The notes: a model not told the origin generated them from the letters alone. A stretch of 64,000 nucleotides of DNA from an uncultured Alphaproteobacteria bacterium (GCA_944391405.1 CALXTN010000004.1:11293-75292); one strand, 5' to 3'; shown: positions 13,135-48,407, counted from the first letter of the stretch. Made by a program: numbers and translations.

Positions 13135-13135
13135 A

Positions 13136-16100
13136 TTAGTTCCTCCGGTTTTGCGCAACTTCATCTAATATATATCCGGAAACTTGGCCTCGTATATTTA
13201 TGTACGCACCATTGCTTTTTAAATATCCGATCTGCCCATTTGTTAGACTGTATATTACTCCGCTTGGAGATAGTCTACCCAAAAACTTTCCGTCATTGCT
13301 TAATATATTAGCACCTATTTTATAACTGTGTCCCAATATTTTTCCATTGTTATCTACAACTAAATTTGATGATATAATTCTTCCAATAACCATTCCTTCT
13401 TTATTTAAAACCTTACCTTCTGTATTTACGATACCTACAACTTGGTCTTCCTCGTTAATCACAATATCGTCATCTATGATTTCCCCTATTAAATATCCTT
13501 TTTTATCAATAGCTTGTCCTGAATTTAAGATTTTACCTATTTTAGTATTTTCTGTGGATATTATGTTCCCATCTGCCGCAACTTGACCTATTATTTTTCC
13601 AGAATAATTAAGAACAACACCTCTTTTTATTACATTATAATTTTTATTTGATATTCCTCCTGGAAGAATTGTCGCTATTATTTTATCTTCTTCATCAATA
13701 ATATCGCCTAAGGTATTCAGGTATCCGCGTATTTTTCCTTGCATATCTATTATGAAGTCTTCTTTTATTACCTCTCCTATTATTTGTTTATTTTCATCTA
13801 GAATATGACCTTCTGATCCAACATTACCACTTATATTTCCATCTACATCTATAACTTTACCACTTTTGCTAACGTATCCTAAATATGCTCCATCGTATCC
13901 AATACCTACTCCTGTTTTAACTAAGCCTCCTTTATATTCTCCTTGTTCATCAAACATTCTTCCTTTACCATCTATATGTCCCAATTCTGTACCAAGAACA
14001 TCTATTACTTTCCCCGAATCATTTACTATTCCTATATAATTTCCGTTAAAATCAACTACAGTGCCTTTGCTTATTATTTTCCCGGCTTTTTTCGAATAGA
14101 AAGAACTTCCATCATATACAAATTTATCTATAGCTATTCCTCTTTGATTATAGATATATCCGTCTGCAAAGAGATGACCAATTGTATTTCCATTTGCATC
14201 TACTACAACATTTTTTTCTGGTAATAGCACTCCTTGTACTTCTAATTTTGGATTTACTAAATATTTAGTAAATAATATCTTTGTATTAGGAATTATATCT
14301 TTGCTTTCATATTTAAAAATTGATAAATTATTTATAAAATCACCATTTATGCCAAACGCCTGTGTTTTATCCATAACTTGTCCAATAATAAAGCCATCTT
14401 TATTTAATATCTCGCCATCAAAATTTGCACAGCCAACCGCTTGGGAGCCATTTTTCACTGTACCATCCTGATTGATAGGGCCCATCATTTCTCCACTATA
14501 ATACAAAGCATAACTAGGTTCAAAAACTTTTCCTATTAATTTTCCATCTTGATTTAAAACTCCCCCGTCTGGATTTACACATCCAACATATCCCCCTTCA
14601 TTGTTTCGAACAAAACCATCATATCCGGCATTGCCTATAATATTACATTTTTCATCTCTGACTGCTCCTACCTTTGCTATGTCGCCTACGTAATTTCCTT
14701 CTTTATCAATTATAGAGCGATCAAATAACATTCGGTATTCGGTTTCTTTTCCATCTTTTTTTACTTTTGCATCTCTATCTACATAACCTAAATGTCTGCA
14801 TCCCCATCCTACAGCCATTCCTCCAATGACTGTTTTTCCAATTATTTTATCCCCTTCTTTTGATTTTATTAATGAATTTGGTAGTATCTGCCCAATTACT
14901 TCCTCTTTACTATTAATCACTTCACCTTTATTGTTGATTATTCCTAAACTGTATCCCATGGGGGAAATTGCTATCATATCTTTTTTTACAACAATTCCTA
15001 TTCTTACCCCTCGTGAACTAATTACATTACCATTTTCATCTATATATCCAATTACTATTCCCCTTCCGTCATAAACTTTTCCATCCTCGTCTATATAGCC
15101 TATAACGTTACCATTTTCGTCTATAGCCAGATTTGAGTAATCTCCTACCTGACCGACAATCTTACCATTTTCATCTATTGTAAAATCAACGTTTCCACCG
15201 ACTCTGCCAATGATATTTCCTTTTTCATCTTTTATACTACCATCTTCTTGAACTGTCCCTATTATATTGCCATTTAAATCCCTTGCTATTCCATTTTCAT
15301 CTATATATCCAATAACATTTCCTGCTTCATCTAGTATAGATTTTCGAGAAACTATTTTTAGGTTTCCATCTCCCTTTTCAGCTAATCTTCCAATATTTTC
15401 TCCGTTTACACCGTAAACATTTCCATCTTCGCCCACAACACCGATAACTTTACCATCTTTTCCTATAACTCTTCCTTGGTCATCAACGTAACCTATAATA
15501 TTACCATTTTCGTCTAGTACTACTTTTGCAAGTTCACCTGCTCTACCTATAATATTTCCGTTTATATCATTTATACTACCATCTTCACCTAAATATCCAA
15601 GCAGATTTCCTTCAAAATCACGCACTGTTCCATCTTCGTCTATATAACCGATAACATTCCCATTATTATCATATGCAAGTCGGCGATTTATATCAGCTTT
15701 GCCCAGAACTTCATCCGTTACACCAATGATATTTCCATCTTCATCAACAAAGCCTATCAGTTTACCATTTTCTCCATATACTTTTCCATCATCACCAACA
15801 TAGCCAATTACATTACCATTTTCATCTACAGCTAAAGTTTTTGTCTCACCTACCTTACCTATTTCTCGGCCATATGCGTCTATTATTCTTCCATCTTTGG
15901 TTGCTTTTCCTATTAAATTACCTTTAAAATCATATACATTTCCATCTTTATCAACGTATCCCATAACCTTTCCATTTTTGTCATAGGCCAAAGCTCCCTT
16001 TTTATCGACTTGTCCGATAATTTCTCCAGTATTTTTTAAAATGTTTCCATTTTCATCAACATAACCTAGAATATTTCCTTTGAAATCTTTAACTGTGCCG

Positions 16101-19100
16101 TCTTTGTCTACAAAACCTATAACCTTTCCATCTTTGTCATAAGCTAAATTTTTTGCACTGCCTACTTTTCCAATAATATTTCCATTTTTGTCTACTACAT
16201 TTCCTTTTTCATCTATTTTGCCAACAATATTGCCTTTCTCATCAATGACATTACCATTTTCATCAACATAACCTAGAATATTTCCGTCTTTATCATATGC
16301 AAGTCTTACACTTTTGCATGCGGTGCATATTACTTCGCCTGCGGCTTTTACTTCCTTATTTGTTGTTACATAGCCTATTAGTTTATTATCTTTGTTAAAT
16401 GCAAAATTATTTTCTTTCATATAGCCAATAATATTATTTCCGCTGTCTTTTATTGTTTTATTGTCTGCATCTAATTTTCCTATTATATTTTCTTTTGTTC
16501 TTAAAACATCACCTTTGATATCAACAATTCCTATTATTTCATCATCATTACCTCTTACATAATTTTGTGCATCTATATATCCAATAACATTACCTTCTGC
16601 TATTTGAGCAACGTTTAAGACTTCTCCTTTTAAACCTAGTAGCAGTCCTTTGTTATCAACTACATCTTCTCCTTTATTTGTTCCTATTATTTTATTCTTA
16701 AAATCTTTTACTACGTTATTTTTATCTAAATAACCAATAATCTTTCCTTTTTTATTTTTTATAATTCTTTTTCTTACACAGGTTCTCCCTATTACTGTAT
16801 TTCCTGCCTTTATTACATTTCCATTTTTATCAAGAAAACCTACTAAATTTCCATTTTCGTCAACAACTCTTCCGTTTTCATTCACGTACCCAATGATATT
16901 GCCATTTTTATCCGTAGCAACTTGTTTATATTCTCCAGCTTTACCAATTACACGACCTTTTTTATCCAGAATACTACCATCCTCAGCCATTCTTCCTATT
17001 AGATTACCTTTAAAATCTTTTACCGTTCCATCTGGAGTGATATATCCAATAACTTTGCCATTCTTGTCATAAGCTAACCTTTTGAAGTTTCCGGCAACTC
17101 CAAGCTTCTCTCCACTTGATGCAATTATATTACCATTTTTATCGACAATTCCAATGATTTTACCATCACAATTTATTACTCTCTTTTGGGCATCAATGTA
17201 ACCTATAAATATACCCTGATTATTAAACGCTAATTCTTTTATTCCGCCTGCTTTTCCTATTATTTTTCCATTTTTATCTACTATATTTCCAGAGGCATCC
17301 TTCTTACCAAGAACGCTTCCTCCGCAGCCTTTAGCCGTACCGTCTGTATCAACATAACCTATAAATTTTCCATTTTTATCATACACTATTTCTCTTGATG
17401 TTCCGGCTTTTCCTATTATTTTTCCATTTGTACCTATTACGTTACCTTTTTCGTCTACATATCCAACAAGAGCTCCATTTTTCCCTATTACGCGCCCTTT
17501 GTCATCAACAACACCTATTACATTGCCTTTTTTATCAAAAGCTACTGTTGCATAATTTCCAGCTTTTCCTATTATCTTTCCATTTTTATCTACTATATTT
17601 CCATTTTTATCTACTTTTCCGATAATATTACCGGCAAAGTCTATCACATTTCCATCATCATCGATATAACCTATCGGTTTACCATCTTTTCCTAGAGCTA
17701 TTCTTTTTTTATTACCACTTGTATCTGCCTGATTTATACCTATAATGTTTCCATTTTTATCTACATTACCGATATGTTTACCATTATGATCAAAAACTCG
17801 GCCTTGTTCATCAACGTATCCTATAACTTTTCCATCTTTGTCTAGCGCTAGTTTGGCATAATTTCCAGCTCTTCCTATTATATTTCCATTTTTATCTACT
17901 ATATTTCCGTTTTTATCTACTTTTCCGATAATATTGCCCTTAAAATCTTTTACTGTTCCATCTTTATCAACATAACCGATAATGTTCCCATCTTTATCAT
18001 AGGCTAATCTTCGGCTTGCTCCCACTTTACCTATTATGTCTGCTTTTTTGTTGTCTTTATCAAATTTTACAACTTTCCCATTTTCATCAATATAACCTAT
18101 TGCTTTTCCATCTTTGTCATAAACAATTTTACGACTATCTCCATTCGTACCTATTTTTTCTTTTGCAACTTTATAAACATTACCATTTTCATCCACATAA
18201 CCAACAATATTGCCGTCTTGATCAACAACACTATTGTCTGGCATTACCACACCTAGCACATTACCATTTTCATCAACCACAATGTTTCCTGATGATGTTA
18301 CTTTACCAATAACATTACCATTTTCATCAACAACTTCTCCCTTTTCATTAAGGCGACCTATAATTTTTTTAGGATCATTAATATCAACTACGGTTCCATC
18401 GGGTAGAACTCGTCCGATAATTTTACCATTTTTATCATACACAAATCCTGCTTCTACAGCTTTTCCTATAACCTCACCCTTACTGTTTACAATAGTACCA
18501 TCGGGAAGAGCCTTTCCAATTACCTCTCCTTGTAAATCTACAACAGTTCCATCGGTTTTTACATAACCGATAATGTTCCCATCTTTGTCATATGCTAATT
18601 TCATATTTTGGGCTACACCTATTATATTACCATCAGCATCAACGATAAGACCATCTTCATTTACTTTACCGATAATATTCCCATCTTTGTCATGAACATT
18701 ACCTGCTTCATCAATGTATCCTATAATTTCACCATTTGGCCCTATCGCAAGACGATGTGCACCTATACCACTCCCTTCTCCTATTACACATCCTTCTCCC
18801 GTACCACAATTTTGCTGATTGTCTTCAGGATATACAGCACTTCCTCTTATACTTACTTCTTCCGATTTTGCGCTCGATTTATCTAAACGCGTCTCATACC
18901 ATATTACTTTGAAATTATTTTGAACATTTCCTGGTAAATGCGGAATCCAAGTTATTAATACGTTACAAGTTTCATCTCCACGTAAATCTCTGTTTCTGCA
19001 TTTGTCCCTATACTCAAATCCATCTTCTGTTTCTTCGACAAGCTCTACTCTTTCAATATGAATACTTTCACTACCATCGGTTCCTATAGTTAAGACACTT

Positions 19101-19417
19101 TGATTTTGGGTATCTACTCCTAAAACAAATTTATTCATATTTATTTGTGCTGGCGTAATTTTGATCGGTTTGCTTTTATCTTTATCTGAAGCGGCTTCTG
19201 TATCAATAAATATTGGGCCTTCATCTGCATTTATTTCTGGGAGAATATTTTGATTTTCTACAAAATTTGGAACAGCTTCTTCTGGATTGTAAACTTCAGT
19301 CTCTGAAGAAATCATCAGTAATCCAATTAGAAAAAAGCAAAATGCGATAATTCCTATTGCGAAAATTATCTTTCGAGTTTTTCTTTCATATTCTTCAAAC
19401 CGAGTATTCTCGTTCAT
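13136..19417 (-). CDS. 2093-aa membrane-anchored repeat protein: N-terminal TM, Ig-like (ASH/choice-of-anchor-D-like) domain, ~35 tandem ~51-aa beta-hairpin repeats
   Basis: Basic N-tail plus one hydrophobic helix (IIFAIGIIAFCFFLIGLLMI); C..L...ETC.VLITW.P..PG pattern; repeats such as LAYDKDGNIIGYVDKDGTVKDFKGNIIGKVDKNGNIVDKNGNIIGRAG; overlaps the virB9 stop by 4 nt. Confidence 0.85.
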   Translation of the reverse strand: MNENTRFEEYERKTRKIIFAIGIIAFCFFLIGLLMISSETEVYNPEEAVPNFVENQNILPEINADEGPIFIDTEAASDKDKSKPIKITPAQINMNKFVLGVDTQNQSVLTIGTDGSESIHIERVELVEETEDGFEYRDKCRNRDLRGDETCNVLITWIPHLPGNVQNNFKVIWYETRLDKSSAKSEEVSIRGSAVYPEDNQQNCGTGEGCVIGEGSGIGAHRLAIGPNGEIIGYIDEAGNVHDKDGNIIGKVNEDGLIVDADGNIIGVAQNMKLAYDKDGNIIGYVKTDGTVVDLQGEVIGKALPDGTIVNSKGEVIGKAVEAGFVYDKNGKIIGRVLPDGTVVDINDPKKIIGRLNEKGEVVDENGNVIGKVTSSGNIVVDENGNVLGVVMPDNSVVDQDGNIVGYVDENGNVYKVAKEKIGTNGDSRKIVYDKDGKAIGYIDENGKVVKFDKDNKKADIIGKVGASRRLAYDKDGNIIGYVDKDGTVKDFKGNIIGKVDKNGNIVDKNGNIIGRAGNYAKLALDKDGKVIGYVDEQGRVFDHNGKHIGNVDKNGNIIGINQADTSGNKKRIALGKDGKPIGYIDDDGNVIDFAGNIIGKVDKNGNIVDKNGKIIGKAGNYATVAFDKKGNVIGVVDDKGRVIGKNGALVGYVDEKGNVIGTNGKIIGKAGTSREIVYDKNGKFIGYVDTDGTAKGCGGSVLGKKDASGNIVDKNGKIIGKAGGIKELAFNNQGIFIGYIDAQKRVINCDGKIIGIVDKNGNIIASSGEKLGVAGNFKRLAYDKNGKVIGYITPDGTVKDFKGNLIGRMAEDGSILDKKGRVIGKAGEYKQVATDKNGNIIGYVNENGRVVDENGNLVGFLDKNGNVIKAGNTVIGRTCVRKRIIKNKKGKIIGYLDKNNVVKDFKNKIIGTNKGEDVVDNKGLLLGLKGEVLNVAQIAEGNVIGYIDAQNYVRGNDDEIIGIVDIKGDVLRTKENIIGKLDADNKTIKDSGNNIIGYMKENNFAFNKDNKLIGYVTTNKEVKAAGEVICTACKSVRLAYDKDGNILGYVDENGNVIDEKGNIVGKIDEKGNVVDKNGNIIGKVGSAKNLAYDKDGKVIGFVDKDGTVKDFKGNILGYVDENGNILKNTGEIIGQVDKKGALAYDKNGKVMGYVDKDGNVYDFKGNLIGKATKDGRIIDAYGREIGKVGETKTLAVDENGNVIGYVGDDGKVYGENGKLIGFVDEDGNIIGVTDEVLGKADINRRLAYDNNGNVIGYIDEDGTVRDFEGNLLGYLGEDGSINDINGNIIGRAGELAKVVLDENGNIIGYVDDQGRVIGKDGKVIGVVGEDGNVYGVNGENIGRLAEKGDGNLKIVSRKSILDEAGNVIGYIDENGIARDLNGNIIGTVQEDGSIKDEKGNIIGRVGGNVDFTIDENGKIVGQVGDYSNLAIDENGNVIGYIDEDGKVYDGRGIVIGYIDENGNVISSRGVRIGIVVKKDMIAISPMGYSLGIINNKGEVINSKEEVIGQILPNSLIKSKEGDKIIGKTVIGGMAVGWGCRHLGYVDRDAKVKKDGKETEYRMLFDRSIIDKEGNYVGDIAKVGAVRDEKCNIIGNAGYDGFVRNNEGGYVGCVNPDGGVLNQDGKLIGKVFEPSYALYYSGEMMGPINQDGTVKNGSQAVGCANFDGEILNKDGFIIGQVMDKTQAFGINGDFINNLSIFKYESKDIIPNTKILFTKYLVNPKLEVQGVLLPEKNVVVDANGNTIGHLFADGYIYNQRGIAIDKFVYDGSSFYSKKAGKIISKGTVVDFNGNYIGIVNDSGKVIDVLGTELGHIDGKGRMFDEQGEYKGGLVKTGVGIGYDGAYLGYVSKSGKVIDVDGNISGNVGSEGHILDENKQIIGEVIKEDFIIDMQGKIRGYLNTLGDIIDEEDKIIATILPGGISNKNYNVIKRGVVLNYSGKIIGQVAADGNIISTENTKIGKILNSGQAIDKKGYLIGEIIDDDIVINEEDQVVGIVNTEGKVLNKEGMVIGRIISSNLVVDNNGKILGHSYKIGANILSNDGKFLGRLSPSGVIYSLTNGQIGYLKSNGAYINIRGQVSGYILDEVAQNRRN
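16047..16285. repeat. 32-bp exact direct repeat within the giant repeat gene (16047-16078 and 16254-16285)
   Basis: ccattttcatcaacataacctagaatatttcc occurs twice, 207 bp apart (in frame). Confidence 0.9.
17550..17935. repeat. 80-bp near-identical direct repeat (17550-17629 and 17856-17935), 306-bp period
   Basis: 3 mismatches in 80 nt by manual alignment; partial third copy near 17251-17290; a further 26-bp exact repeat at 17970-17995 / 18561-18586. Confidence 0.88.
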
Positions 19418-23270: not shown

Positions 23271-26200
23271 CTAGTATATTGGTGCATACGGCACAGCTTG
23301 GCTTTGGTTATCCATAGATTTTAGACCTTCTTCAGTTGCTTCCATAGAGGTTTCACGATTGACTTCAGCCTCGACCTTAGCTGCTTCTACATCTTCTGGT
23401 CTAGAATCAGGTTGAATAAAGGTTACTTCCTCCTCATCTTTTTCGAAGGAGTTTAAGTAGTTTTGAATATTTCGAATACGTTCCGTTACTTTGTCGTGAC
23501 CTTCCATCGTCTTAACGTTTTCGAACCCTTCATACGTTCCTTCTTCATCTGTATAACCCTGCTCTGCTTTATTTATCGCTTCACCTTTTAATTCGTCAAG
23601 TTTACAGAAGATTGTTTCATAATAAGAACCAGAGTTGGATTGTTCACAATTTATCTTATCTTCAAAATATGCGTTATCATTTGAATCCTTAGCTAATCCT
23701 CCGTTTTCCATTATGTATTCTGCACAAACACTATCTGCATCATCGCCACTTTCACCGTTCACCGTTTCTCCATAATTGTGAAGCTGATTGCATAGTGTTT
23801 TTAGAGAATCCTTAATATCTTCTTCATTCTTTTCCAGAGCTTTTTGCGCAGAATGTTCCGCATTTACCGCATCTAAGAATGAACCGATGAGATTGCGTTT
23901 GTACACTGCTGTATCTGCACGTTGGCGCTCAATATTATTTTCTTGGTTTTCGTCACTAAGCAAGTAATCATAAATATTCTTTAATATTGGACGATACTTT
24001 AACTCATCATTTAGCAGTTGACCAAGTTCACTGTATTTACCATACATTGGTTCATTGCTTATTTCTAGCTCCGGTTGGATAGCTTTATCTTGATCTGCTA
24101 ACAAATGGCGTACTCCATTTCCAGATAATGCGATTTCTCGACAATCTTTTTGGTATACTTCCGGCAACTGAGGAGGCGTTAAACGACGCATAAATTGAAT
24201 TTCTGCCACGCTATCATCACCACCACCTGCTATATCTATATATTTATCACCTAATTTACATGGATATATACCGGCTCTATTGATTATAGTTCTGTAGTGT
24301 TCAGGTTCTGCACTGTCAATTCCTTTGTTTTTTAATTGATTTTTTAATTTATCCAAACCATATGAGCGTTCAACAAATGTATGTTGATATTTTCGATCAT
24401 TCCTTAAGTTTGGCGTTGCTAATAAATAACGCCACGTTTCCGGTAAATATTCAACTTGATGCTTCTCGGTATCTTTGTATTTCATATCAACAAGTGCTGA
24501 TAATGATGGTTTTCCATCATTTTGCGGAACGTCATCATAATCTAACGCACTAAAGTAAAATACTTCTCTTACCGGTGCTAAGTTTAATAATGGCTTTCTT
24601 GGCGCATAATAATCGCGACCATCATTGTTATCAACGATAAAATCCTCTGCATTTCGTCCAAATTGAACAAATGTATTTGTTTGTGAGTCATTATCTTCTT
24701 TTTTACCAAAATATCCTCTTGCCGGCAGGGCTACAAAGTAGTCATCATCCGTTTTAATCTCATCCGGAATGCCAAAGATTTTTTGTAACTCAATATCTGC
24801 TTCGTCAAGTATCTCTTTATTTTCCTCTGTAGGTTGTTTTAAATCCTCCAGCAATTTATAGTGTGTTGCGGTTATTATTTGCGTATCTGTTTTTTGGGCT
24901 TCAGTTGCTCCATCCTTAGCATATTTGTCATGTTCAAAAATAGCTGAATCTGCACCATTATTATCTGTTCCGGTTATTTTCCATCTTTGCATGACGGATG
25001 TAACTTTTTTAGCGGCTGCTTCAATTTCTGTTTCAATGATTTCATCAGCTCTTAAAATTTTCTTTTTCAATTCTTTTGCCGCATCTTTAACAGCTTTTTC
25101 CTTTATTGCTTGAGCCAGCCTCTCTCGTGTATAGGTTCCGCCATTTATTCCATCAAAGACATTATCTTCAATATAAAATTTCTCAACGACGCCTGCTTGC
25201 TTTAACTTTTGAGCAGCCTGATTTTCCCAATTTGGGGTAAACCATCTATCATTAATACTATCTTGAATAATGCCTTCAAGTTCACTCTCTACTTGATTTT
25301 GATTGTTTGTATTTGTATTTCCAAACATTACTCGAGCCATTGTCCAACTTAAATTGTCAGATTTATATCCATACTCTGTGTTGTATTCGTTACATGGTAA
25401 CCAAGGAAGTATCTGATTACACCTTTCTCTATTTTTGTTCTCCATTCTATCCGGAAATGTGCCATCCTCTTTGGGCTCTAATTTATTTTCTAATTTTCTA
25501 TTTTCGTTTTCTATTTTCGTTTGTCCTTCTTCTGATTCCTTAATATAATCCTCAGCAAACTCGGTTGCCGTTGTTTCAAGTTTTTGATTTAGTTCATCAA
25601 CTTTTTCTTGTAATACACTCATCATCGACTTTGCACTAGTGATTTCTGTATTCATTTGAGTTATTATATTGGACAATTCTCCAACATTTTGGAATTCTAT
25701 GTCAGTACCTTGGTATATTTCTTCTTTTTCTTTACTAGCTTCGGAACGATATTCTTTGCATACCTCATGATTATCATCTTCAGGAGCTTGATAGCATATA
25801 TATTTTAATTCTTCTTTTAGCGCAGGAATTTGACCTTTTTTCTGTGCTAATGTTGGATTGTCAAATTTATTTGAGTCGTCACCAGCCCCTTTTTCTATTG
25901 ATTCAATTTCCTTTTGCAATCCAGCTTTTTGTTTTGGATTATTGTTTTGAAGCTCTTCTAGTTCTTCAACGCGATTTTCTAGTTCGGCAATTTGTGAAAT
26001 AATTGCAGATACGCGTTGTAATGAGCGTTGACGTTCTTCTACAGCATTATTTTTATTTGTTGTTGCCGTATCTAACTTATCAACATAGTTGTTTCTTTGA
26101 TTTATGGTTTCTTCAAGCTCTTTTTTGATAGCATCTATTTTGGTATTATAATCCTGTATAAGGTCCTGCAGATTTTGTTCTACTTTTTTTCTTGTATTTA

Positions 26201-28682
26201 AGATGCCTATGAAGTGATCTGCCGCAACAACTCTTCCAGCTTTGTTAGTTTGTTTATATAAGTGCTCATTTTGTTTATCATAATCACGCGGACAAGTTTG
26301 TTCATATGTTCCGTCTTGCTTCCAGCTGGCAATTACTCCTGGAATATATTTTTTGACTAGGAATTTAGTAGAGAAATCCCATTCTCCAGGGCATTTATCT
26401 CCTTTATCTTCTATTTTACTATAATCAGTCTTCTCTTTTGTGAAATCGCAGCCACCATTTTCACTCTTAATAGCTTGGCTGTAGCTTTCGCTCCTTACAG
26501 TGATATTATCACAACTATCCCTTTTGGTAAGTTTTATTTTACCAGTGCTATTATCACCTTTTACAATGCATGTGTTTACTATTCTTTCTCCTGAGCACGA
26601 TATCGTTTTAACCGCAACGCATTCTAGAACGTCATTTGTTGGAGAGGAAGGACATTCGCCTACATAGCCGCCATTTTTACATTTCTCATTGAATAAATTT
26701 TTTGCCACCTCTGTTGTCAATTGACACGAAGACACCGCCGGCAATATTTTTTCAATTAGACCATTTTCGTTATAGCTATTTGTTAAAATATTTGCCACAC
26801 GTTGCGAAAGCATGCCTTGGTCTACAGTATTAATCATCATGCGTATATTGCGGTATTTATTGCGCAGATATTCTGTTTGCAGGTCCTTTTGATCATTCCA
26901 TGGGGCAAATTTTAGTGTTCCGTTCTCGGTTAGCTCCATTATGTTGTCATAGCCTATACGCCAATTTTTCTCGGCCTTTATTCTGTTTTCTGTTTCTATA
27001 TTTTCAGCCTCATTTCCATCTTTTAAATAATCCATATCGTTATACTTGAGTTCTTCAACGATACTGTAATCATCTAATTTGGGTGTATATGATACTTTGG
27101 GATCTTCTTCCGGATCTGTATCTGATGTTATTGTATTTAATACACAAGCAAATTTTGTTGTGCTTTCTACTTGTTTTCCGGTGCTGTCTGTGTAGACACA
27201 TGGATTTCCTTCATCTGGTGTATAGCCGTCTGGACAAGTTTCATAGAATCCACTGCAGTCATCCGAATCTGTACCGATTAATTTATCTGTCGCGTCTTCT
27301 TGATACTCCTCAATAACTTTCTTTGATAAACCTCCGCGATTTTCATGGTCATTGACTTTGGACGGTTTCCGGCCTTCATACCATATCTTTTCTCCTTGAT
27401 TATTACTATATTTATCTAGGAAACTTACCACATTTTTTTCACTTTCTTCTAATACTTTGAGCATTCTTTCGTGTATTTCTTTTGATTTTAGGTATTTTCT
27501 GTATTGGGTTTTATATTCTGCTAATTGCGATTTTAGATTATGCAGATTCATTGCTTTGTTTATCTGCTCATCAATTGGCTGTAGTTTACCTAAAATTGTT
27601 GTATCATCTGTATTAAGAATTTCAGTAGAATCATCATTTTTATCTGGACAGTTGCTGCCTCCTTGGGCACATACGTCGCTTCTTTTATACTCTCCTCCCA
27701 GCATTTTTCCTGCTGCTAAAGCATAATCTCTACTTTCATTGTATGCAAATCTATATCTTGTATTAATATAATCCTCTGCTGAAGATTGATTGTCTAATTC
27801 AGAAGATTGATTGTCTGGCTCTACCGGATCAACACTATCTATTTGTACTGCTGATAAAAATTGAGCTTCAGTTCCGGTCAAATCTTCAACGATGCGCATT
27901 AATCTATCGTATACTGTTGTGACAATATAGGCGTTCAAAACTTCCCCATATTGCCCCGGATTTGTACTGTCTTCTGGTTTACCTTCTTTATCTAAACTGT
28001 CTTTTTGGGGCTCAACATAGGCCATTTGTAATCCAAAAAACACACAATGCTTTTCCACCTCTGGATACATCCCTTTTTGGCAGTTATCTAGGCGCTCTAT
28101 AGTTTTTTCTACTAAGGCAAGGTAATTTTCTGTTACACGGCCAGTTAAATATGTTTCCATAGTAATATCTTGCATGTATTCATTTGCCTTGCGTTTATAT
28201 GCTTGCTTTACTGCCGGATAATTTACAACGGGGGATGTTCCATCTTCTGCATCGCTCTCTGGTAGTTGATAGCTGTTTTTTGGGGGATATACAAAAAATA
28301 GAGTATGAAACGCGTTAAAGTACTCTTCTTCATTTATATCACCCGATATCCCTAATAAACTACTTGCTTTTAATTTTCCTTTTCCCGGAGCTTTGTTGGT
28401 GTCTCCTTCTTCCTCTGCACTAAACGTAGTCTTCAAAAACTTTTGTCCTTTTTTTAGAATTTCAAGTTTTTGACTGTTTAATTCCGACTTTATGGTCTGA
28501 AGTTGGCGGTATGTAGCTTTTATATTTGACACAATCTTATTGGCATTACCAGGAATATCCACTTCAATATCCCATGGCATTGGGGGTAAGAGCCCAAAAG
28601 CTTTTGCTTCTTGTATCCCTGCTCCTAAGATAAACACACTCAGAATTAGGCTTTGTAAAACTTTTAACTGCTTTCTAACCAT
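23271..28682 (-). CDS. 1803-aa secreted Cys-rich / coiled-coil protein (putative T4SS adhesin or tip protein)
   Basis: Signal peptide ending AKA; helical N-domain like neighbouring paralogues; several Cys clusters; central heptad coiled coil (QNLQDLIQDYNTKIDAIKKELEE...); no other TM segment. Confidence 0.75.
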   Translation of the reverse strand: MVRKQLKVLQSLILSVFILGAGIQEAKAFGLLPPMPWDIEVDIPGNANKIVSNIKATYRQLQTIKSELNSQKLEILKKGQKFLKTTFSAEEEGDTNKAPGKGKLKASSLLGISGDINEEEYFNAFHTLFFVYPPKNSYQLPESDAEDGTSPVVNYPAVKQAYKRKANEYMQDITMETYLTGRVTENYLALVEKTIERLDNCQKGMYPEVEKHCVFFGLQMAYVEPQKDSLDKEGKPEDSTNPGQYGEVLNAYIVTTVYDRLMRIVEDLTGTEAQFLSAVQIDSVDPVEPDNQSSELDNQSSAEDYINTRYRFAYNESRDYALAAGKMLGGEYKRSDVCAQGGSNCPDKNDDSTEILNTDDTTILGKLQPIDEQINKAMNLHNLKSQLAEYKTQYRKYLKSKEIHERMLKVLEESEKNVVSFLDKYSNNQGEKIWYEGRKPSKVNDHENRGGLSKKVIEEYQEDATDKLIGTDSDDCSGFYETCPDGYTPDEGNPCVYTDSTGKQVESTTKFACVLNTITSDTDPEEDPKVSYTPKLDDYSIVEELKYNDMDYLKDGNEAENIETENRIKAEKNWRIGYDNIMELTENGTLKFAPWNDQKDLQTEYLRNKYRNIRMMINTVDQGMLSQRVANILTNSYNENGLIEKILPAVSSCQLTTEVAKNLFNEKCKNGGYVGECPSSPTNDVLECVAVKTISCSGERIVNTCIVKGDNSTGKIKLTKRDSCDNITVRSESYSQAIKSENGGCDFTKEKTDYSKIEDKGDKCPGEWDFSTKFLVKKYIPGVIASWKQDGTYEQTCPRDYDKQNEHLYKQTNKAGRVVAADHFIGILNTRKKVEQNLQDLIQDYNTKIDAIKKELEETINQRNNYVDKLDTATTNKNNAVEERQRSLQRVSAIISQIAELENRVEELEELQNNNPKQKAGLQKEIESIEKGAGDDSNKFDNPTLAQKKGQIPALKEELKYICYQAPEDDNHEVCKEYRSEASKEKEEIYQGTDIEFQNVGELSNIITQMNTEITSAKSMMSVLQEKVDELNQKLETTATEFAEDYIKESEEGQTKIENENRKLENKLEPKEDGTFPDRMENKNRERCNQILPWLPCNEYNTEYGYKSDNLSWTMARVMFGNTNTNNQNQVESELEGIIQDSINDRWFTPNWENQAAQKLKQAGVVEKFYIEDNVFDGINGGTYTRERLAQAIKEKAVKDAAKELKKKILRADEIIETEIEAAAKKVTSVMQRWKITGTDNNGADSAIFEHDKYAKDGATEAQKTDTQIITATHYKLLEDLKQPTEENKEILDEADIELQKIFGIPDEIKTDDDYFVALPARGYFGKKEDNDSQTNTFVQFGRNAEDFIVDNNDGRDYYAPRKPLLNLAPVREVFYFSALDYDDVPQNDGKPSLSALVDMKYKDTEKHQVEYLPETWRYLLATPNLRNDRKYQHTFVERSYGLDKLKNQLKNKGIDSAEPEHYRTIINRAGIYPCKLGDKYIDIAGGGDDSVAEIQFMRRLTPPQLPEVYQKDCREIALSGNGVRHLLADQDKAIQPELEISNEPMYGKYSELGQLLNDELKYRPILKNIYDYLLSDENQENNIERQRADTAVYKRNLIGSFLDAVNAEHSAQKALEKNEEDIKDSLKTLCNQLHNYGETVNGESGDDADSVCAEYIMENGGLAKDSNDNAYFEDKINCEQSNSGSYYETIFCKLDELKGEAINKAEQGYTDEEGTYEGFENVKTMEGHDKVTERIRNIQNYLNSFEKDEEEVTFIQPDSRPEDVEAAKVEAEVNRETSMEATEEGLKSMDNQSQAVPYAPIY

Positions 28683-30064
28683 TAGTCGTCTCCCGCATTT
28701 ACATTTTTCTCTTCTAACTCTTTTATGGCACTATTTTCTGTATTGGCTTCTTCAATCGCTTTATCCACATCTTCTTGTGTTAGTATGTATCTCTCTAAAT
28801 TAAACTCAGTATAGGGAATTTCTTCATTATTTGGTACTTTAATAACATCCAAGCTTAGTAATTTTTTGGCTGCCATATACTGTAATCTTGCACTTTGCAG
28901 TTTTGCATACATTAATAAAGCTTTCATACTTTCTATCCTTGTAGCTGAATATGATGATATTGCTTCTAACTCTCCTGACGCCGCCGGGGTGTTTTGGAAT
29001 ATTTCATCTATTGTCTCACTTCTTTCTGGTATCTCTCTTCTTAATGTCGCTGTTACTTGTAACAAATGAGCCGCACTATTTACTAATAGAAAACGACGCT
29101 CTCGCATGGCTGCATCTATTTTTGTTTGATGCTTAACTCGCTCATCAGACTTTATTTCCGCATCTGTTTTTGTTTCTCCAAAATCATTATTTTCTGCCGA
29201 TGATAAGTCTTCAGGGTTATAAAAATATCTCGCAAGAAAAGCATTATAATCATCCTTTGTCGGAGAAAAATCGTTTACCACCTCCTCTGAATCCCACTCT
29301 TCATCTTCTTCTGATGATTTGTTAAGTATAGCATCTTCATCTCCGTCGGCTTCTTCTTTTTCACTATCTAACTCTTCTAAGCGTTTTTCATACAGCATAT
29401 ATTCCGGATCTTCTTCTGTTCCTACTTTCTTTTTTTCTTTCTCTAAAACAGTTTTTTGTTTTTTTAATGTTTCTAATAATTCATCTAGTTCATTACATAC
29501 AACTACTAATTCTTCATATTGCATCCATGCATTTTTATAATCATCCAGAGCGTTGGGTTCTTTTGAAAAATCATTTTTTACGGTTTCGTAATAATTCTTT
29601 TTTGTCTCTGTTTCCACTTTTTTTTCATCTCTTTCTTCCTGTTTTTTTTGTAGCTCTTCCTCCGTTTTCTGGATACTTTCATCCATAATTCCTATTTTTT
29701 CATCATAATAAAGATTTTTATTGTTTACATAGAGAGTTTTCTCTTCATCTATTTTCTCTCTGTTTTTCTTTTTAGTACCTTTGACAATTTTTTCCATTTT
29801 TATTTTAAGTAGATCGTTACCATTCCGTGACATATACTTATAGGCTATATTATATAAGTTTTCTTTATTAAACCCTTGTGATGTCATTTGTTTTATTTGA
29901 GAAACTTGTTGCGTTATTTTTGTTGTAGCTTCCGTCAGCTTTCCAACCCATTCACTAATTTTTGCAGCAAGTGTAGACGCATCAATAATTAACGCATGAG
30001 CATTATTTGGAATACTTGTAATCAGGGCAATGACTGTGCAGATGATCATTAATTTTTTCTTCAT
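28682..30064 (-). CDS. Secreted coiled-coil protein, VirB5/TrbJ-like
   Basis: Signal peptide ending AHA then LIIDAST; long E/K coiled coil; C-terminal helical module; located in the virB5/6 slot. Confidence 0.6.
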   Translation of the reverse strand: MKKKLMIICTVIALITSIPNNAHALIIDASTLAAKISEWVGKLTEATTKITQQVSQIKQMTSQGFNKENLYNIAYKYMSRNGNDLLKIKMEKIVKGTKKKNREKIDEEKTLYVNNKNLYYDEKIGIMDESIQKTEEELQKKQEERDEKKVETETKKNYYETVKNDFSKEPNALDDYKNAWMQYEELVVVCNELDELLETLKKQKTVLEKEKKKVGTEEDPEYMLYEKRLEELDSEKEEADGDEDAILNKSSEEDEEWDSEEVVNDFSPTKDDYNAFLARYFYNPEDLSSAENNDFGETKTDAEIKSDERVKHQTKIDAAMRERRFLLVNSAAHLLQVTATLRREIPERSETIDEIFQNTPAASGELEAISSYSATRIESMKALLMYAKLQSARLQYMAAKKLLSLDVIKVPNNEEIPYTEFNLERYILTQEDVDKAIEEANTENSAIKELEEKNVNAGDD

Positions 30065-30777
30065 TGTTCTTCTCCTTCTTCCTCATAATCTCTTGTCTGC
30101 TGTGTTAATTCGGCTGTAGAACCCGCACTTGTCATGTATGCTTTCATTTCAAGTATCTTGTTTAATCTTTGTTCTGTTGCTATTGCCACTAGATTTTGGG
30201 CATGTAAAATTTCATCCATATTTTCGTTCTTAAATACTTTCTGATATAAGGTGCCATCTTCTTTTAAGATACTTTGCCGCGCGGATACACCTTTGGCAAA
30301 TAATATAGCTGTATCATCTGCTATTATTGCATTTATGTAACGGCGATTTTCTGTTGTGTTTGCAATATCCTTTCCTTGTCCTCTTTTGTAGATATATGCA
30401 TTTTCAACTGTTTGCGCTAAAATTTCATCTCTTTTTTTCTTTAAATCACCTTGTTTTAATTCGCTAGCCCCTGGCATTACTCGTATTTCTGTTATGCTAT
30501 TCTTTACATATTCTTTAGAATATTCTGTAAATGCCGTCAGAGATTCAACATCGCATTTTGTTGGATTCTTATAGCAGTTGCTTGCGATATCAAATCCTTG
30601 TCTTGCTCTTTTTTCTATATCCCTTAATTTTTTCTGCACCTCTTGTACTTTGTTTTCCACATCCTTATACAATTCCAGAACTGTTTCTACTTTTGCCATT
30701 ATATCAAATATTGCATATGCTTCACGCGTATATACAAATAATGAGAAAAAGAGAATTATCCAAACTTTCTTTTTCAT
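30061..30777 (-). CDS. Secreted helical protein, VirB5/TrbJ-like
   Basis: Signal peptide ending AYA then IFD; VirB5-like size (238 aa) and predicted all-helical. Confidence 0.6.
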   Translation of the reverse strand: MKKKVWIILFFSLFVYTREAYAIFDIMAKVETVLELYKDVENKVQEVQKKLRDIEKRARQGFDIASNCYKNPTKCDVESLTAFTEYSKEYVKNSITEIRVMPGASELKQGDLKKKRDEILAQTVENAYIYKRGQGKDIANTTENRRYINAIIADDTAILFAKGVSARQSILKEDGTLYQKVFKNENMDEILHAQNLVAIATEQRLNKILEMKAYMTSAGSTAELTQQTRDYEEEGEEQ

Positions 30778-32906
30778 TGTTCATCTCCTTCCTCTTGTTG
30801 ACCAAAGTAATTATAGTTAAACGTTTCCAAGTCTTTTAAAATCTCGGTTTGCTGATTTTGCGCATCTGCATCAACAATACTCAGTATTTGCTGTGTGGTG
30901 TAATAGTTAATCTGAGCACCTATAGAATAGTCATCTTTTGTGGTTGTGCTTTCTTTTAATCCATCTTGAAGGCTTACAATGTTTTTGTCACCATTCTGTG
31001 GTAATTGGTTTGGCTCTATATAATCTAAACTTGATTTATAGTTATTTACGACCGCTAGAGTTAAATTATTAAATGCAGAATCGTTGTACGCTTTTCTTTG
31101 ATTCTCGCGCCATTGTTTTTTTTCATCTTCGGAACCTCTACTCGCTTTTAATGCATATTGATATAAACAGTTTGCTATTTTTTTCTCAGCTTCCTTTATT
31201 TTGTCTGCATCAGTTTTGTCTTCTTTTTTAACAGAAATATCTTCAGCTTCTATTCCGCATTTATATAGTATTACATTAGAAAAAATTAATTTTTTTTCTA
31301 CCTTCCCTGGAGCTTTCCTTGTGGCTTCATAAAAATCCTCATCTCTTTCATCTAGATATAATGTTATTCCTCTCTCAAAATCTTGTATTACACCTTTTGC
31401 CCTTTTTAGAGCATCTACTCTGCGGATTTCACTCCAAAGCTTTGGCGCTTCTATATCTGTCATTCCCATTAATTGATATCCGGCACGGGTGTTGTCTACA
31501 TTCTCTAATGTTTTTCTTAAAACAGATAGCGTGCTATCTTCTTTGTCCAAATTTCCCCATGTTGCTGAAAATTGTTTAGCCTTGCTTACACTTACAAGAT
31601 TGGCGATGCTATAATCCTCTCGCAAGTGTTTATATATACCGTCTTTTTGAAAATCTTTATATAAACTTTCTTCATAGATCTTTGGATACAACTCTACTTC
31701 TGCCTTGGCTTTTATAACGCATTTTCTTAATTTACTCGCATCACTTTCTATATCCTTTATATCGAGACTTTCACACTGTAATTCAGCTGGCAGCAAAAAA
31801 CTTTTGTCCTCTTCTTCTGCATATACTCCTGTTAATAATTGATGCTCGTAATTTGATATATATTTAAACGCATATATTTTTTTCATCTCTCTTTTTATGC
31901 TTGCTTCTTCACTTCCATCTGAGTATCCTTTTGAATTACTTATACTGTTCATAACGTCTTCTTCAAAAGCATCAATTTTATCTGCTATTTTTTGTGCGTC
32001 TGATACAATGCCGTTTATTGCATTTGCGTCTACTCCAGTTTCTAACCTTTCAATGTTATTCTTAAAGTTTTCTCCTGCTTGAGTTAAACCGGCTCTATCA
32101 ATATTTCCGTCATAGTAATCGCTTATGGCTTGGCTATATTCATCAAAGGCTGATGCTATCTGTTCATTATATATGGAATTTACCTCTTCCTTGGTTGCAC
32201 TGATTATGCTTGAGGCGTTTCCTTTTAATTCTTCAATTTCATCCTTAATTTCATTGGCTCCCCCATTTAATCTGCTCTTATCTTCGTCACTTAAGTCTCC
32301 ATTTTCATTTAGACTATTCATTAACATATCTACAGCTGTTTGTGCTTTGTCCATTGAATCATCAATTGTTCCTTCTGCATCACTTAGAATTTTTTCTATA
32401 TCTTCTTTATTTTTGTCTGATTCAATTTTAGCTTCTTCTAAAGAGGCTTGAACTTCACCTTCACTGCCTCCACCTGATACTTGACTTTCAACTGTTTCTA
32501 CTGTATTTTCAGCATTCTGCTTTTCTTGATTTAAATTTTCATCTACGGCTTCTTTCACATCTGAAACAATACCTTCAACCCCATTTATTGCATCTTTGAC
32601 ATCATCTGTTATTTTTGTAATACTATCTTTTATTGAAGTTATCGTATTTTTTAAATCTGCAGCATACTTTCTTACTGATGAAACTTGGTCGCCTATAGTT
32701 TTAATTGTATTTGTAATATTATCTAATTGACTTTTTGCATTGCTTATTTGATTTAGTCCCGTTGTTATACTATTTACAAAGGAGACTATTTCAGTCAAGT
32801 CTATTACAGGCCAGACAAAGGCCTTTGCAGGGCGCACACTTAATATTAGGCAAAGACACCCTATCATTGTCCCTTTTATTAAGTTGGATATTATCCTTTT
32901 TTTCAT
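30774..32906 (-). CDS. Secreted helical protein, VirB5/TrbJ-like (710 aa)
   Basis: Signal peptide ending PAKA then FVWPVIDLTEI (PV.D motif typical of VirB5/TrbJ N-termini); N-half paralogous to 32973-34115. Confidence 0.65.
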   Translation of the reverse strand: MKKRIISNLIKGTMIGCLCLILSVRPAKAFVWPVIDLTEIVSFVNSITTGLNQISNAKSQLDNITNTIKTIGDQVSSVRKYAADLKNTITSIKDSITKITDDVKDAINGVEGIVSDVKEAVDENLNQEKQNAENTVETVESQVSGGGSEGEVQASLEEAKIESDKNKEDIEKILSDAEGTIDDSMDKAQTAVDMLMNSLNENGDLSDEDKSRLNGGANEIKDEIEELKGNASSIISATKEEVNSIYNEQIASAFDEYSQAISDYYDGNIDRAGLTQAGENFKNNIERLETGVDANAINGIVSDAQKIADKIDAFEEDVMNSISNSKGYSDGSEEASIKREMKKIYAFKYISNYEHQLLTGVYAEEEDKSFLLPAELQCESLDIKDIESDASKLRKCVIKAKAEVELYPKIYEESLYKDFQKDGIYKHLREDYSIANLVSVSKAKQFSATWGNLDKEDSTLSVLRKTLENVDNTRAGYQLMGMTDIEAPKLWSEIRRVDALKRAKGVIQDFERGITLYLDERDEDFYEATRKAPGKVEKKLIFSNVILYKCGIEAEDISVKKEDKTDADKIKEAEKKIANCLYQYALKASRGSEDEKKQWRENQRKAYNDSAFNNLTLAVVNNYKSSLDYIEPNQLPQNGDKNIVSLQDGLKESTTTKDDYSIGAQINYYTTQQILSIVDADAQNQQTEILKDLETFNYNYFGQQEEGDEQ

Positions 32907-32972
32907 ATCACGCCCTCCCTAATAATCTTTATTGTACTCCAATTATCTTAAACTTATTGATAATACGTTAAT

Positions 32973-34115
32973 TTAATTTTTTTTCTTTGCCTCTACTTCT
33001 GATGCAATTGCTTTTAATTCTTTTTTTATTTCCTCGGTTGCTTTTTGCTGCTGTTTTAGCACTTCTTTATCTATATTGATATCTATTTGAGAATATGTCA
33101 TTTTTAATTCTTTACCTTTCTTTATGACATCTTCTTTGCTTGCATCTCCTCTAAAGTAACTTTCTACTATATTTTTGTAGCCCTGTATTTCATCTATTAA
33201 TTTGTTTTGATATTCTGTATTATAGTTTTCTTTCGCATTCTCTATTAGAATAACTGATTTATCTGCAACATTCTGATATTTATTTTTCAAATCAGCCACT
33301 TTTTGAGCTATATTTTCCTTATCCTTGATTTCCAATTGTTCGGACGCCTTTATTGATTTTTCTAAATTGTCCAATATTTCATTGGTACGCTTTGATGATT
33401 GATTCAATGTGTTTATTGCAGTGTCCAAAACATCACTCATTTGGGCTATAACTTGCTTACTTTCATCTTCAAATGCTGTAATATTATCTATAATTTCTTC
33501 TTTTTGCAGAAATAATTCTTCATCATCTGCGACTTCTTCTTCCTCTTCCTCTTCTTCTATTTCTTCAGATGCTTGTTCTCTTTTGGCCTTTTCAACTTCA
33601 TTTTTTGCATTTAATTTTTGCATTCCTTCATCTGCTTTTTGGCTCGCTTTTTGTACACTATCTATTCCTGAGCTTCCTTTATCTATATATTCGTTGCCCT
33701 TATTTAAAATGCTTTCTGTTTCATCTATTAAATTATTTAGATTATTATCCAACGCATTATTCGTTGCGTCAAAGCTATCGTTTATCTTTTCAGGAATTTC
33801 TATGTTTGTTCCTAGATTTTCATTTATCCCATCAATGGCATTATTTGCAACTTCTTGTATGTCGCTGATTGTATTTCTTAAATCTTGACCAAATTGCGCA
33901 ATATTATTTATACTTTGCCCTATTGCATCCAAAGTTTTTTTCATTTCCATAATTTGTGATTTTGCTTCTGATAATGAGCCAATTGCCGTATTTACACTTG
34001 AAACAATTTCTGGAACTTCCCCAAAATCCATTACAGGCCAAAATGCTTTGGCGGGCTTATACATCATTATGGTACAGCCTAAAATTACAACGCTTAAAAT
34101 CTTAGTTTTTACCAT
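32973..34115 (-). CDS. Secreted helical protein, VirB5/TrbJ-like (380 aa)
   Basis: Signal peptide ending PAKA then FWPVMDFGEV; acidic linker; aligns by eye with the first ~320 aa of the 710-aa neighbour. Confidence 0.65.
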   Translation of the reverse strand: MVKTKILSVVILGCTIMMYKPAKAFWPVMDFGEVPEIVSSVNTAIGSLSEAKSQIMEMKKTLDAIGQSINNIAQFGQDLRNTISDIQEVANNAIDGINENLGTNIEIPEKINDSFDATNNALDNNLNNLIDETESILNKGNEYIDKGSSGIDSVQKASQKADEGMQKLNAKNEVEKAKREQASEEIEEEEEEEEVADDEELFLQKEEIIDNITAFEDESKQVIAQMSDVLDTAINTLNQSSKRTNEILDNLEKSIKASEQLEIKDKENIAQKVADLKNKYQNVADKSVILIENAKENYNTEYQNKLIDEIQGYKNIVESYFRGDASKEDVIKKGKELKMTYSQIDINIDKEVLKQQQKATEEIKKELKAIASEVEAKKKN

Positions 34116-42751: not shown

Positions 42752-42760
42752 GAGTGGATA

Positions 42761-45572: not shown

Positions 45573-45607
45573 TTGTTTAATTTAATTGCTGTTTACAGGT
45601 GTAGTAC

Positions 45608-47272: not shown

Positions 47273-47281
47273 GAGATTAAT

Positions 47282-48403: not shown

Positions 48404-48407
48404 TTGA

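Follow-up and report, generated by a model that had tools for sequence, protein, structure and literature searches.

Several type IV secretion systems (T4SS) expose exported proteins that decide what the machine attaches to. In F-like plasmids, the adhesin TraN (PF06986) stabilises mating pairs, and its variable region determines recipient specificity. In the chromosomal Trw system of Bartonella, amplified and diversified trwL/trwJ surface-subunit genes serve host-specific adhesion; in that system, the diversification rests on small pilus genes present in tandem copies, and there is no VirD4. The VirB5/TrbJ/TraC/TrwJ minor pilins (PF07996) and the Helicobacter Cag system, with CagY and the exported proteins CagL, CagI and CagH, complete the set of close comparisons. 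This study concerns a gene of 1803 codons, hereafter called the giant, in a 64,000-nucleotide stretch of the genome of an uncultured Alphaproteobacteria bacterium (GCA_944391405.1, CALXTN010000004.1:11293-75292; "the window" throughout). Judged from its sequence, the giant is a lineage-specific, Sec-exported structural subunit of a chromosomal VirB-type T4SS, present essentially throughout a bacterial order. It is also reasonably likely to be an exposed, modular subunit that contacts the target of the machine, TraN-like in its working while standing outside the TraN family.

The comparison with these systems yields likenesses of arrangement rather than of sequence. Like TraN, the giant is an exported, cysteine-rich T4SS accessory, and in both a conserved scaffold carries a variable region, the alleles of which move between elements that are otherwise alike. 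This likeness is functional only: the two match neither in sequence nor in Pfam, the giant has three times the size of TraN and a long coiled-coil hairpin that TraN lacks, and its context is VirB/P-type and chromosomal, whereas that of TraN is F-type. With the VirB5 pilins it shares a Sec signal, a place in the gene cluster after virB4, and, at the start of the mature protein, a short proline/aspartate motif that precedes a helix, but those proteins have ~220-250 amino acids (aa) against the 1803 aa and 28 cysteines of the giant, and no profile, Pfam or PDB-sequence similarity connects them. Bartonella Trw and the present system are both chromosomal alphaproteobacterial VirB-type T4SS with diversified exposed subunits (presumed exposed, in the case of the giant) and a conserved core; in contrast to Trw, there is a single-copy giant with exchangeable modules, and VirD4 is present. 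Like the Cag machine, the present one is oversized, its VirB10 is expanded by repeats, and some of its exported proteins are lineage-specific and of unknown fold; in both, recombination remodels an exposed component, as the giant is presumed to be. There is no homology, however, and CagY varies by intragenic repeat recombination while the giant varies by imported divergent blocks.

The giant gene, its operon slot and its distribution

The giant gene is a single unbroken open reading frame (ORF) on the minus strand, and the plus-strand frame over the same positions is stop-rich. A first-pass annotation of this DNA had proposed an 1803-aa protein at the same place, which was found as proposed, with the minus strand now added. 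Its start codon overlaps the stop codon of the preceding 460-aa gene (TAATG), and virB8 starts 19 nucleotides beyond its own stop, preceded by GAGGA, which places the giant within a tightly packed operon; the gene is translationally coupled to the upstream 460-aa gene within the virB operon. The parts of the gene referred to below are as follows (window positions, strand, description).

23271-28682, minus: the whole giant gene, an ORF with start and stop context read from the sequence
28599-28682, minus: Sec signal peptide, residues 1-28, predicted cleavage between AKA and F, no lipobox cysteine
27273-28598, minus: N-terminal head, residues 29-470, mostly helical (alignment and AlphaFold2 model)
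27144-27257, minus: first cysteine cluster, residues 476-513 (CSGFYETCPDG...NPCVY...FAC), a modelled beta-hairpin
26748-27014, minus: highly conserved helical block, residues 557-645, with many invariant residues
26253-26750, minus: variable cysteine-rich beta module, residues 645-810, containing the second cysteine cluster (668-705); a block-replacement site
25893-26231, minus: ascending arm of the coiled coil, residues 818-930 (heptads and AlphaFold2)
25683-25895, minus: hypervariable tip of the coiled-coil hairpin, residues 930-1000; the second block-replacement site
25479-25685, minus: descending arm of the coiled coil, residues 1000-1068 (heptads and AlphaFold2)
24783-25460, minus: domain D1, residues 1075-1300, with cysteine pair 1088/1097 and a third variable block at ~1110-1235
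23883-24830, minus: domain D2, residues 1285-1600, the family signature, with 39 invariant columns among 25 species
23274-23885, minus: domain D3, the helical C-terminus, residues 1600-1803, with cysteine pairs 1631/1653 and 1679/1693

All genes of the operon lie on the minus strand, in the order VirB2, a further pilin-like gene, VirB3, VirB4, four exported proteins (380, 710, 238 and 460 aa), the giant, a first VirB8, a small gene, a second VirB8, a VirB9-SPOR fusion, a 2093-aa protein, a 1442-aa protein and VirB11. The giant is thus the last of five consecutive genes with Sec signals between virB4 and virB8. The small gene between the two virB8 copies encodes 62-63 aa in related loci and was taken as VirB7. 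The 2093-aa protein is membrane-anchored and built of beta-flower repeats, and the 1442-aa protein (8836-13164) is likewise of beta-flower type with a C-terminal VirB10/TrbI domain; on these features, the pair is read as an enlarged, split VirB10. With VirB2, B3, B4, B8, B9, B10 and B11, the operon is of the VirB/P type and not of the F type.

A word-indexed search for relatives of the giant returned 52 homologue clusters, all of 1670-2030 aa, unnamed and without a Pfam domain. An exhaustive hmmsearch of 1.84 billion representative proteins with a D2 profile found only 88 proteins: a close family mostly of 1612-2028 aa, a few truncated entries, and a sister form mostly of ~1220-1630 aa that carries D2 at the same relative position. 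No other architecture with D2 was found among these 1.84 billion representatives. The species-representative genomes contained 33 giant loci, 32 of them labelled as metagenome-assembled genomes of uncultured Alphaproteobacteria of the gut or rumen; the samples were of human, mouse, deer, buffalo and rumen origin. The odd one out (L004/L039, JAISVX010000001.1) is a 391-kb contig with the doubtful label "Lactobacillaceae bacterium", which carries this T4SS of Gram-negative bacteria, including VirB9, a beta-flower VirB10 and a sister giant.

The place of the giant in these loci was constant. The five secreted genes occur in unchanged order in ~30 of the 33 loci, and the giant slot lies directly upstream of the first virB8 in every locus examined (~30 species loci, four found by protein, the sister forms, and three genomes missed by the profile). 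D2 was found in all 19 genomes of the genus and in at least 97 of the 151 genomes of the order, as a single copy each, while the cognate VirB4 occurs in 150 of the 151. In each of the three genomes missed by the D2 profile, the place directly before virB8 is taken by a gene for a secreted protein of 1225-1318 aa; two of these proteins end in the family tail YCAIY. Synteny across the order holds down to ~22% identity. Absence from homologous T4SS loci was consequently not observed, the slot being filled in each locus examined; a signal peptide is present, and no family from outside T4SS was matched. By these searches, the giant family is unannotated and found only in the T4SS operon of uncultured gut Alphaproteobacteria, and a literature search on this T4SS (RF32, beta-flower/VirB10, VirB5 paralogues) brought up nothing relevant.

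The surroundings of the operon are chromosomal and near the origin (dnaA, dnaN, recF, rnpA, yidC, engB), with ATP synthase F0, xerD, aroK, rph and addAB on the far side of the window and a DsbA-like gene at 52401-53114. A type IVb pilus operon adjoins the T4SS (40027-49070, plus; 49087-50034, minus) with TcpQ-like, secretin, PilO, ATPase, platform and bundlin-like pilin genes, and a PilT-like ATPase comes after the ATP synthase F0 genes.

Exchangeable modules on a conserved backbone

The mature protein begins behind a Sec-type signal peptide, MVRKQLKVLQSLILSVFILGAGIQEAKA, which ends in GAGIQEAKA and is followed by FG; A26, A28 and F29 are invariant or almost so across the giant family. A scan for a lipobox or for hydrophobic segments beyond the signal peptide found none, in agreement with the earlier proposal of a signal peptide. 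There are 28 cysteines, an even number, of which ~22 are conserved in at least 85% of 51 aligned homologues, mostly as close pairs (201/213, 338/345, 476/483, 495/513, 653/668, 1088/1097, 1475/1514, 1631/1653 and 1679/1693), so that the protein is probably disulfide-bonded. Both cysteine clusters quoted in the first-pass annotation are present, at residues 476-513 and 668-705, and the four cysteines of the former are 96-100% conserved.

Conservation is concentrated in blocks at residues 174-198, 247-276, 387-402, 590-619, 1366-1381, 1415-1436 and 1593-1608. The first three lie in the head, which opens with an invariant F-x3-PP-x-P motif and holds the conserved pairs 201/213 and 338/345. The helical block at 557-645 carries the motif W..G...F..WNDQK.LQ.EYLRNKYRNI, and D2 the motifs FGIP, LPARG, GRDY, PP.REVFYFS, EYLPE.WRYLLARPNLR, TFVER and R.GVYPC. 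D3 terminates in a near-invariant tail, MDNQSQAV.Y(C/A)P.Y-COOH, which could be a docking or sorting signal. In family form this tail reads MDNQSQAVAYCP.Y-COOH (window 23274-23321, minus), with YCAIY in the sister forms; the tail cysteine has been lost in the window copy and those most closely related to it (AVPYAPIY, AVSYSPIY). Length differences accumulate elsewhere: across homologues, the segment 645-810 measures 112-227 aa, the tip segment (920-1000) 33-116 aa, and the segment 1120-1300 up to 409 aa.

When strains were compared within clusters of 90% identity, polymorphism proved to be patchy, and the modules in which it is concentrated differ from cluster to cluster. Allele pairs that are otherwise 97-99.6% identical differ in discrete blocks at ~640-730 (46-53% amino-acid identity), ~920-1015 (40-46%) and ~1112-1160 (61-64%). 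At the DNA level, the loci L042 and L009 agree at 99-100% from the upstream gene through the giant into the downstream flank, with two exceptions, residues ~627-725 at 63-66% and ~1176-1225 at 87%. Modules and backbones can also disagree in their relationships: the pair P0002/P0004 has 97% identity in the backbone, 59% in the module and 39% in the tip, whereas P0007/P0008 has 61% in the backbone and 75% in the module. The 655-735 module of the window copy is only 13-34% identical to ten compared homologues, with backbones at 50-68%. No silent cassettes of giant modules (a pilS-like donor array) were found in the giant's own genome, and the replaced blocks must therefore come from other strains. 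The giant is a clean natural example of module exchange within a single-copy core gene.

Some homologues carry further material. P0032 and P0033 (residues ~1281-1491), P0051 and a C-terminal extension of P0031 contain inserted arrays of beta-flower hairpin repeats, which are the repeats of the split VirB10 (compare window 13136-19417) and match the 2093-aa gene in tblastn. In some homologues, the insertion site is the variable segment of D1.

Rates of evolution also set the giant apart from the core of the machine. In comparisons of species pairs, identity is 98-100% for VirB3, VirB4 and VirB7 and 93-97% for VirB8, against 79-91% for the giant and 68-72% for the first VirB5-like gene. The ratio of non-synonymous to synonymous substitution rates (dN/dS, with dS ~1) amounts to 0.05 in the giant as a whole and peaks at 0.10 in 645-810, compared to 0.01 for VirB4 and 0.13 for the 380-aa gene. 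The giant is thus constrained yet faster-evolving than the core, by a factor of 5-10 relative to VirB4 or VirB8 at non-synonymous sites.

Where the variable blocks lie in space was approached with AlphaFold2 models of two fragments, residues 27-1100 and 810-1803, both of which include the coiled coil. A heptad heuristic marks residues 818-915 and 991-1048, and the models place very long helices at 820-930 and 1000-1068; the long heptad stretch of the first-pass annotation is accordingly present, as are the further globular regions it mentioned. As the coiled coil is an antiparallel hairpin, the module 645-810 and D1 come together at its base and the tip (930-1000) lies ~14 nm away, a length estimated from ~95-110 helical residues, so that all three variable blocks sit at the two ends of the arm.

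The exchange of three modules as blocks between otherwise identical strains is the main reason why the giant is read here as the exposed, target-contacting part of the machine. The head (29-470), the block 557-645, D2 and the invariant C-terminal tail would dock it to the machine, while the exchangeable modules (645-810, the hairpin tip 930-1000 and the D1 block ~1110-1235) would be exposed and contact the target cell or surface. The allele of a strain may then set what the machine attaches to, or what host antibodies or phages recognise. Exposure outside the outer membrane, docking via the conserved parts and a function in adhesion are what I infer. The first-pass annotation had suggested a target-recognition adhesin; its view of the protein as an exported, integral part of the T4SS locus stands, and the adhesin idea is strengthened by the block replacement in three modules and by evolution faster than that of the cytoplasmic and inner-membrane subunits; the VirB5 ancestry and the kinship to neighbouring genes that went with it do not stand (see below).

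Several points weigh against target contact. The segment-wise dN/dS values are far below 1 throughout (none >0.10, dS ~1), so that positive selection is not demonstrated, and the block pattern shows recombination, not its cause. A signal peptide and a cysteine pattern of this kind are expected alike of a periplasmic protein, and the beta-flower repeats shared by some homologues could equally mean a periplasmic location common with VirB10. Searches of Pfam, NCBIfam, PDB and Foldseek found no adhesin-type domain, outer-membrane anchor or known fold. The models themselves are only moderate, with a predicted local distance difference test score (pLDDT) of 66.6 and 76.9 and a predicted template-modelling score (pTM) of 0.34 and 0.49, and they offer no usable structure for the first ~77 residues of the mature protein (pLDDT <50 for residues 27-103).

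The main alternative, which I regard as possible though clearly less probable, is that the giant serves an oversized machine as a scaffold in the periplasm or across the envelope, with a role like that of Cag3, CagM or CagT around the Helicobacter Cag core complex, and that the coiled coil is a strut beside the split VirB10 that is never exposed. The machine is indeed visibly enlarged (the 2093-aa and 1442-aa beta-flower VirB10 pair and the VirB9-SPOR fusion), the giant is strictly co-inherited with core genes and under strong purifying selection overall, and beta-flower repeats are common to the VirB10 halves and some giant homologues. In addition, shorter giants (1225-1573 aa) occur in loci with a shorter N-terminal VirB10 half (1137-1148 aa versus 2093 aa). 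For a buried strut, however, block-wise replacement limited to three modules in otherwise identical strains is hard to explain, and non-synonymous evolution at 5-10 times the rate of VirB4 or VirB8 also speaks against it.

Tests of kinship to known families

The first-pass annotation had described a VirB5-like head and a helical module resembling the C-terminal modules of the 460- and 238-aa neighbours, and neither resemblance was recovered. BLASTP of the giant against every neighbour gave no significant similarity (E >=0.27 against the 380/710-aa pair). HHalign was run with ten giant segments against the four neighbour families (380, 710, 238 and 460 aa; ~30 orthologues per family), and with signal peptides cut the head reached at most 7.7% probability and no segment exceeded 8%. 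Values of 26-65% obtained with signal peptides kept were artefacts that vanished once these were removed, whereas the positive control, the 380-aa against the 710-aa family without signal peptides, gave 99.9%. PF07996 was not matched in 25 orthologous heads even at E<=1, nor in the whole giant, and a head-profile search of 5.8 billion proteins for VirB5-sized relatives returned only truncated copies or fragments of the giant gene.

Among the four smaller secreted genes themselves (window 28682-34115, minus), clear kinship is confined to the 380- and 710-aa proteins (HHalign 99.9% without signal peptides); the match between the 710- and 460-aa proteins is weak (42%), and the 238-aa protein matches none of the other three without its signal peptide.

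That the giant is a true, enlarged VirB5/TrbJ homologue, with its N-terminus in a VirB5 pentamer at the stalk or pilus tip (as in R388) and the rest an appended adhesin, is unlikely on these results. The idea draws on the position of the giant as last of five Sec-signal genes after virB4, of which the first two are related, on a weak PF07996 match in one orthologue of the 380-aa gene, and on a statistically unsupported likeness of motifs past the cleavage site: PPMPWDIE in the giant against IPVTD/WPVMD, with GIPVIEP in the L043 giant and IPVTD and IPVVD in the first genes of L043 and L045. Besides the HHalign and PF07996 results above, the head profile found neither a VirB5-sized relative nor, at E<=10, any PDB sequence. 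As to the fold of TraC (1R8I) and TrwJ (7O3V), a three-helix bundle with a globular appendage, the head model shows long helices at 155-202, 242-283 and 387-425 but has low confidence over residues 27-103. The listed Foldseek matches were all coiled coils, with no VirB5 structure among the top 50, in a search swamped by the coiled coil.

Other families fared no better. Searches of Pfam, NCBIfam and PDB sequences with the whole giant returned only SMC-like coiled-coil noise, the sole PDB-sequence match being a coiled-coil fragment at E=0.6, and the D2 profile had no match among PDB sequences at E<=10. Foldseek of both fragments against PDB and BFVD gave no match at E<=0.001; the top matches were coiled coils of SMC, Rad50, JetC and the dynein stalk (antiparallel, of the SMC/Rad50 type). 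For the globular domains, this lack of a fold match is weak because the coiled coil in both fragments dominated the search.

Against TraN stand the missing PF06986 match in Pfam and NCBIfam searches and an operon that is not F-type. An identity as VirB10/TrbI or CagY was rejected, as PF03743 was not matched and the TrbI domain sits in the 1442-aa gene; so was an autotransporter or trimeric adhesin, with no beta-barrel translocator match in Pfam and the C-terminal 200 residues modelled as helices. A replacement of VirB6/TrbL (PF04610, at least five transmembrane segments) was rejected since the signal peptide is the sole hydrophobic segment and weakly VirB6-like polytopic paralogues exist elsewhere in the genome. 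By these sequence-based tests, the giant fails to match TraN, VirB5, VirB6, VirB10 and autotransporters alike.

The rest of the machine and what the giant may mean

The VirD4 coupling protein (741 aa) is encoded apart from the operon (contig C1:55778-58003, minus), and a 269-aa polytopic gene overlaps the end of virD4. No relaxase of the families PF03432, PF03389 and PF08751 was found anywhere in the genome, which is estimated to be 100% complete, and with none of these three main families present, the machine is probably not conjugative.

A VirD4 without such a relaxase means that the system probably moves proteins, and this, together with the large size and modular variability of the giant, would suit a Sec-dependent substrate that leaves the periplasm via the T4SS, in the way that Ptl releases pertussis toxin, and acts on a host or competitor cell. 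I consider this very unlikely: effectors are rarely fixed in one operon slot order-wide down to ~22% identity, no toxin or enzyme domain was found in Pfam, NCBIfam or PDB sequences, and the gene is translationally coupled to adjacent structural genes. The option of a delivered effector raised by the first-pass annotation loses ground for the same reason, namely the synteny and co-inheritance of the giant with the machine across the order and its entry into the periplasm by the Sec route.

VirB6 is absent from the virB operon. Weak TrbL/VirB6 matches (E=0.003-0.24, below the Pfam cut-off) were obtained for a set of at least four polytopic paralogues with 450-830 aa, candidate VirB6 genes that lie outside the window in two places, on the minus strand:

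C60:263-3031, minus: candidate VirB6 paralogues
C14:35089-38447, minus: candidate VirB6 paralogues

In the rvh system of Rickettsiales, VirB6 genes likewise lie away from the virB operon, as the candidates do here. At least seven polytopic paralogues of ~510 aa (among them C3:5838-8868, C4:80012-83003, ~5 kb past the window end, C9:57265, C8:71013 and C6:1164) were dropped as VirB6 candidates; with the motif D..EH.H … PY.DFFQHHNPL, they look like GT-C glycosyltransferases, and a family of this size is unusual in a genome of 1.7 Mb.

Among VirB4 proteins encoded on plasmids, the closest (36.5% identity) is that of plasmid pMVF16-3 of Microvirga sp. VF16 (671-686 kb; L007). The T4SS of this plasmid is compact: between virB4 and virB7 it encodes a VirB5-like protein (273 aa), a membrane protein (228 aa, three hydrophobic segments) and a secreted protein (428 aa), a layout that is a possible small-scale ancestor of that of the gut-alphaproteobacterial locus.

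A bolder form of the favoured target-contact reading, which I hold to be doubtful, is that the giant and the four smaller secreted proteins form an unprecedented extracellular tip or stalk assembly of a T4SS, with the giant as a swappable "specificity cartridge" of new fold. If true, strains of human and ruminant gut Alphaproteobacteria would swap three recognition modules by recombination, in a T4SS counterpart of phage tail-fibre or TraN allele switching, and this cartridge machine would be a universal core trait of a whole bacterial order.

With no Pfam model, solved relative or detectable fold match, the giant family is a good target for structure determination. The host bacteria are uncultured but common in the gut communities of humans, mice and ruminants and have small genomes (1.3-2.0 Mb), and the fact that nearly all of them keep a very large T4SS means that it must be central to their lifestyle. 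Possible targets of the machine are host cells, other bacteria and mucus. As the component that differs most sharply between otherwise identical strains, the giant offers the best handle on what the machine touches, and it is an obvious candidate for strain-level specificity or for evasion of immunity or phages.

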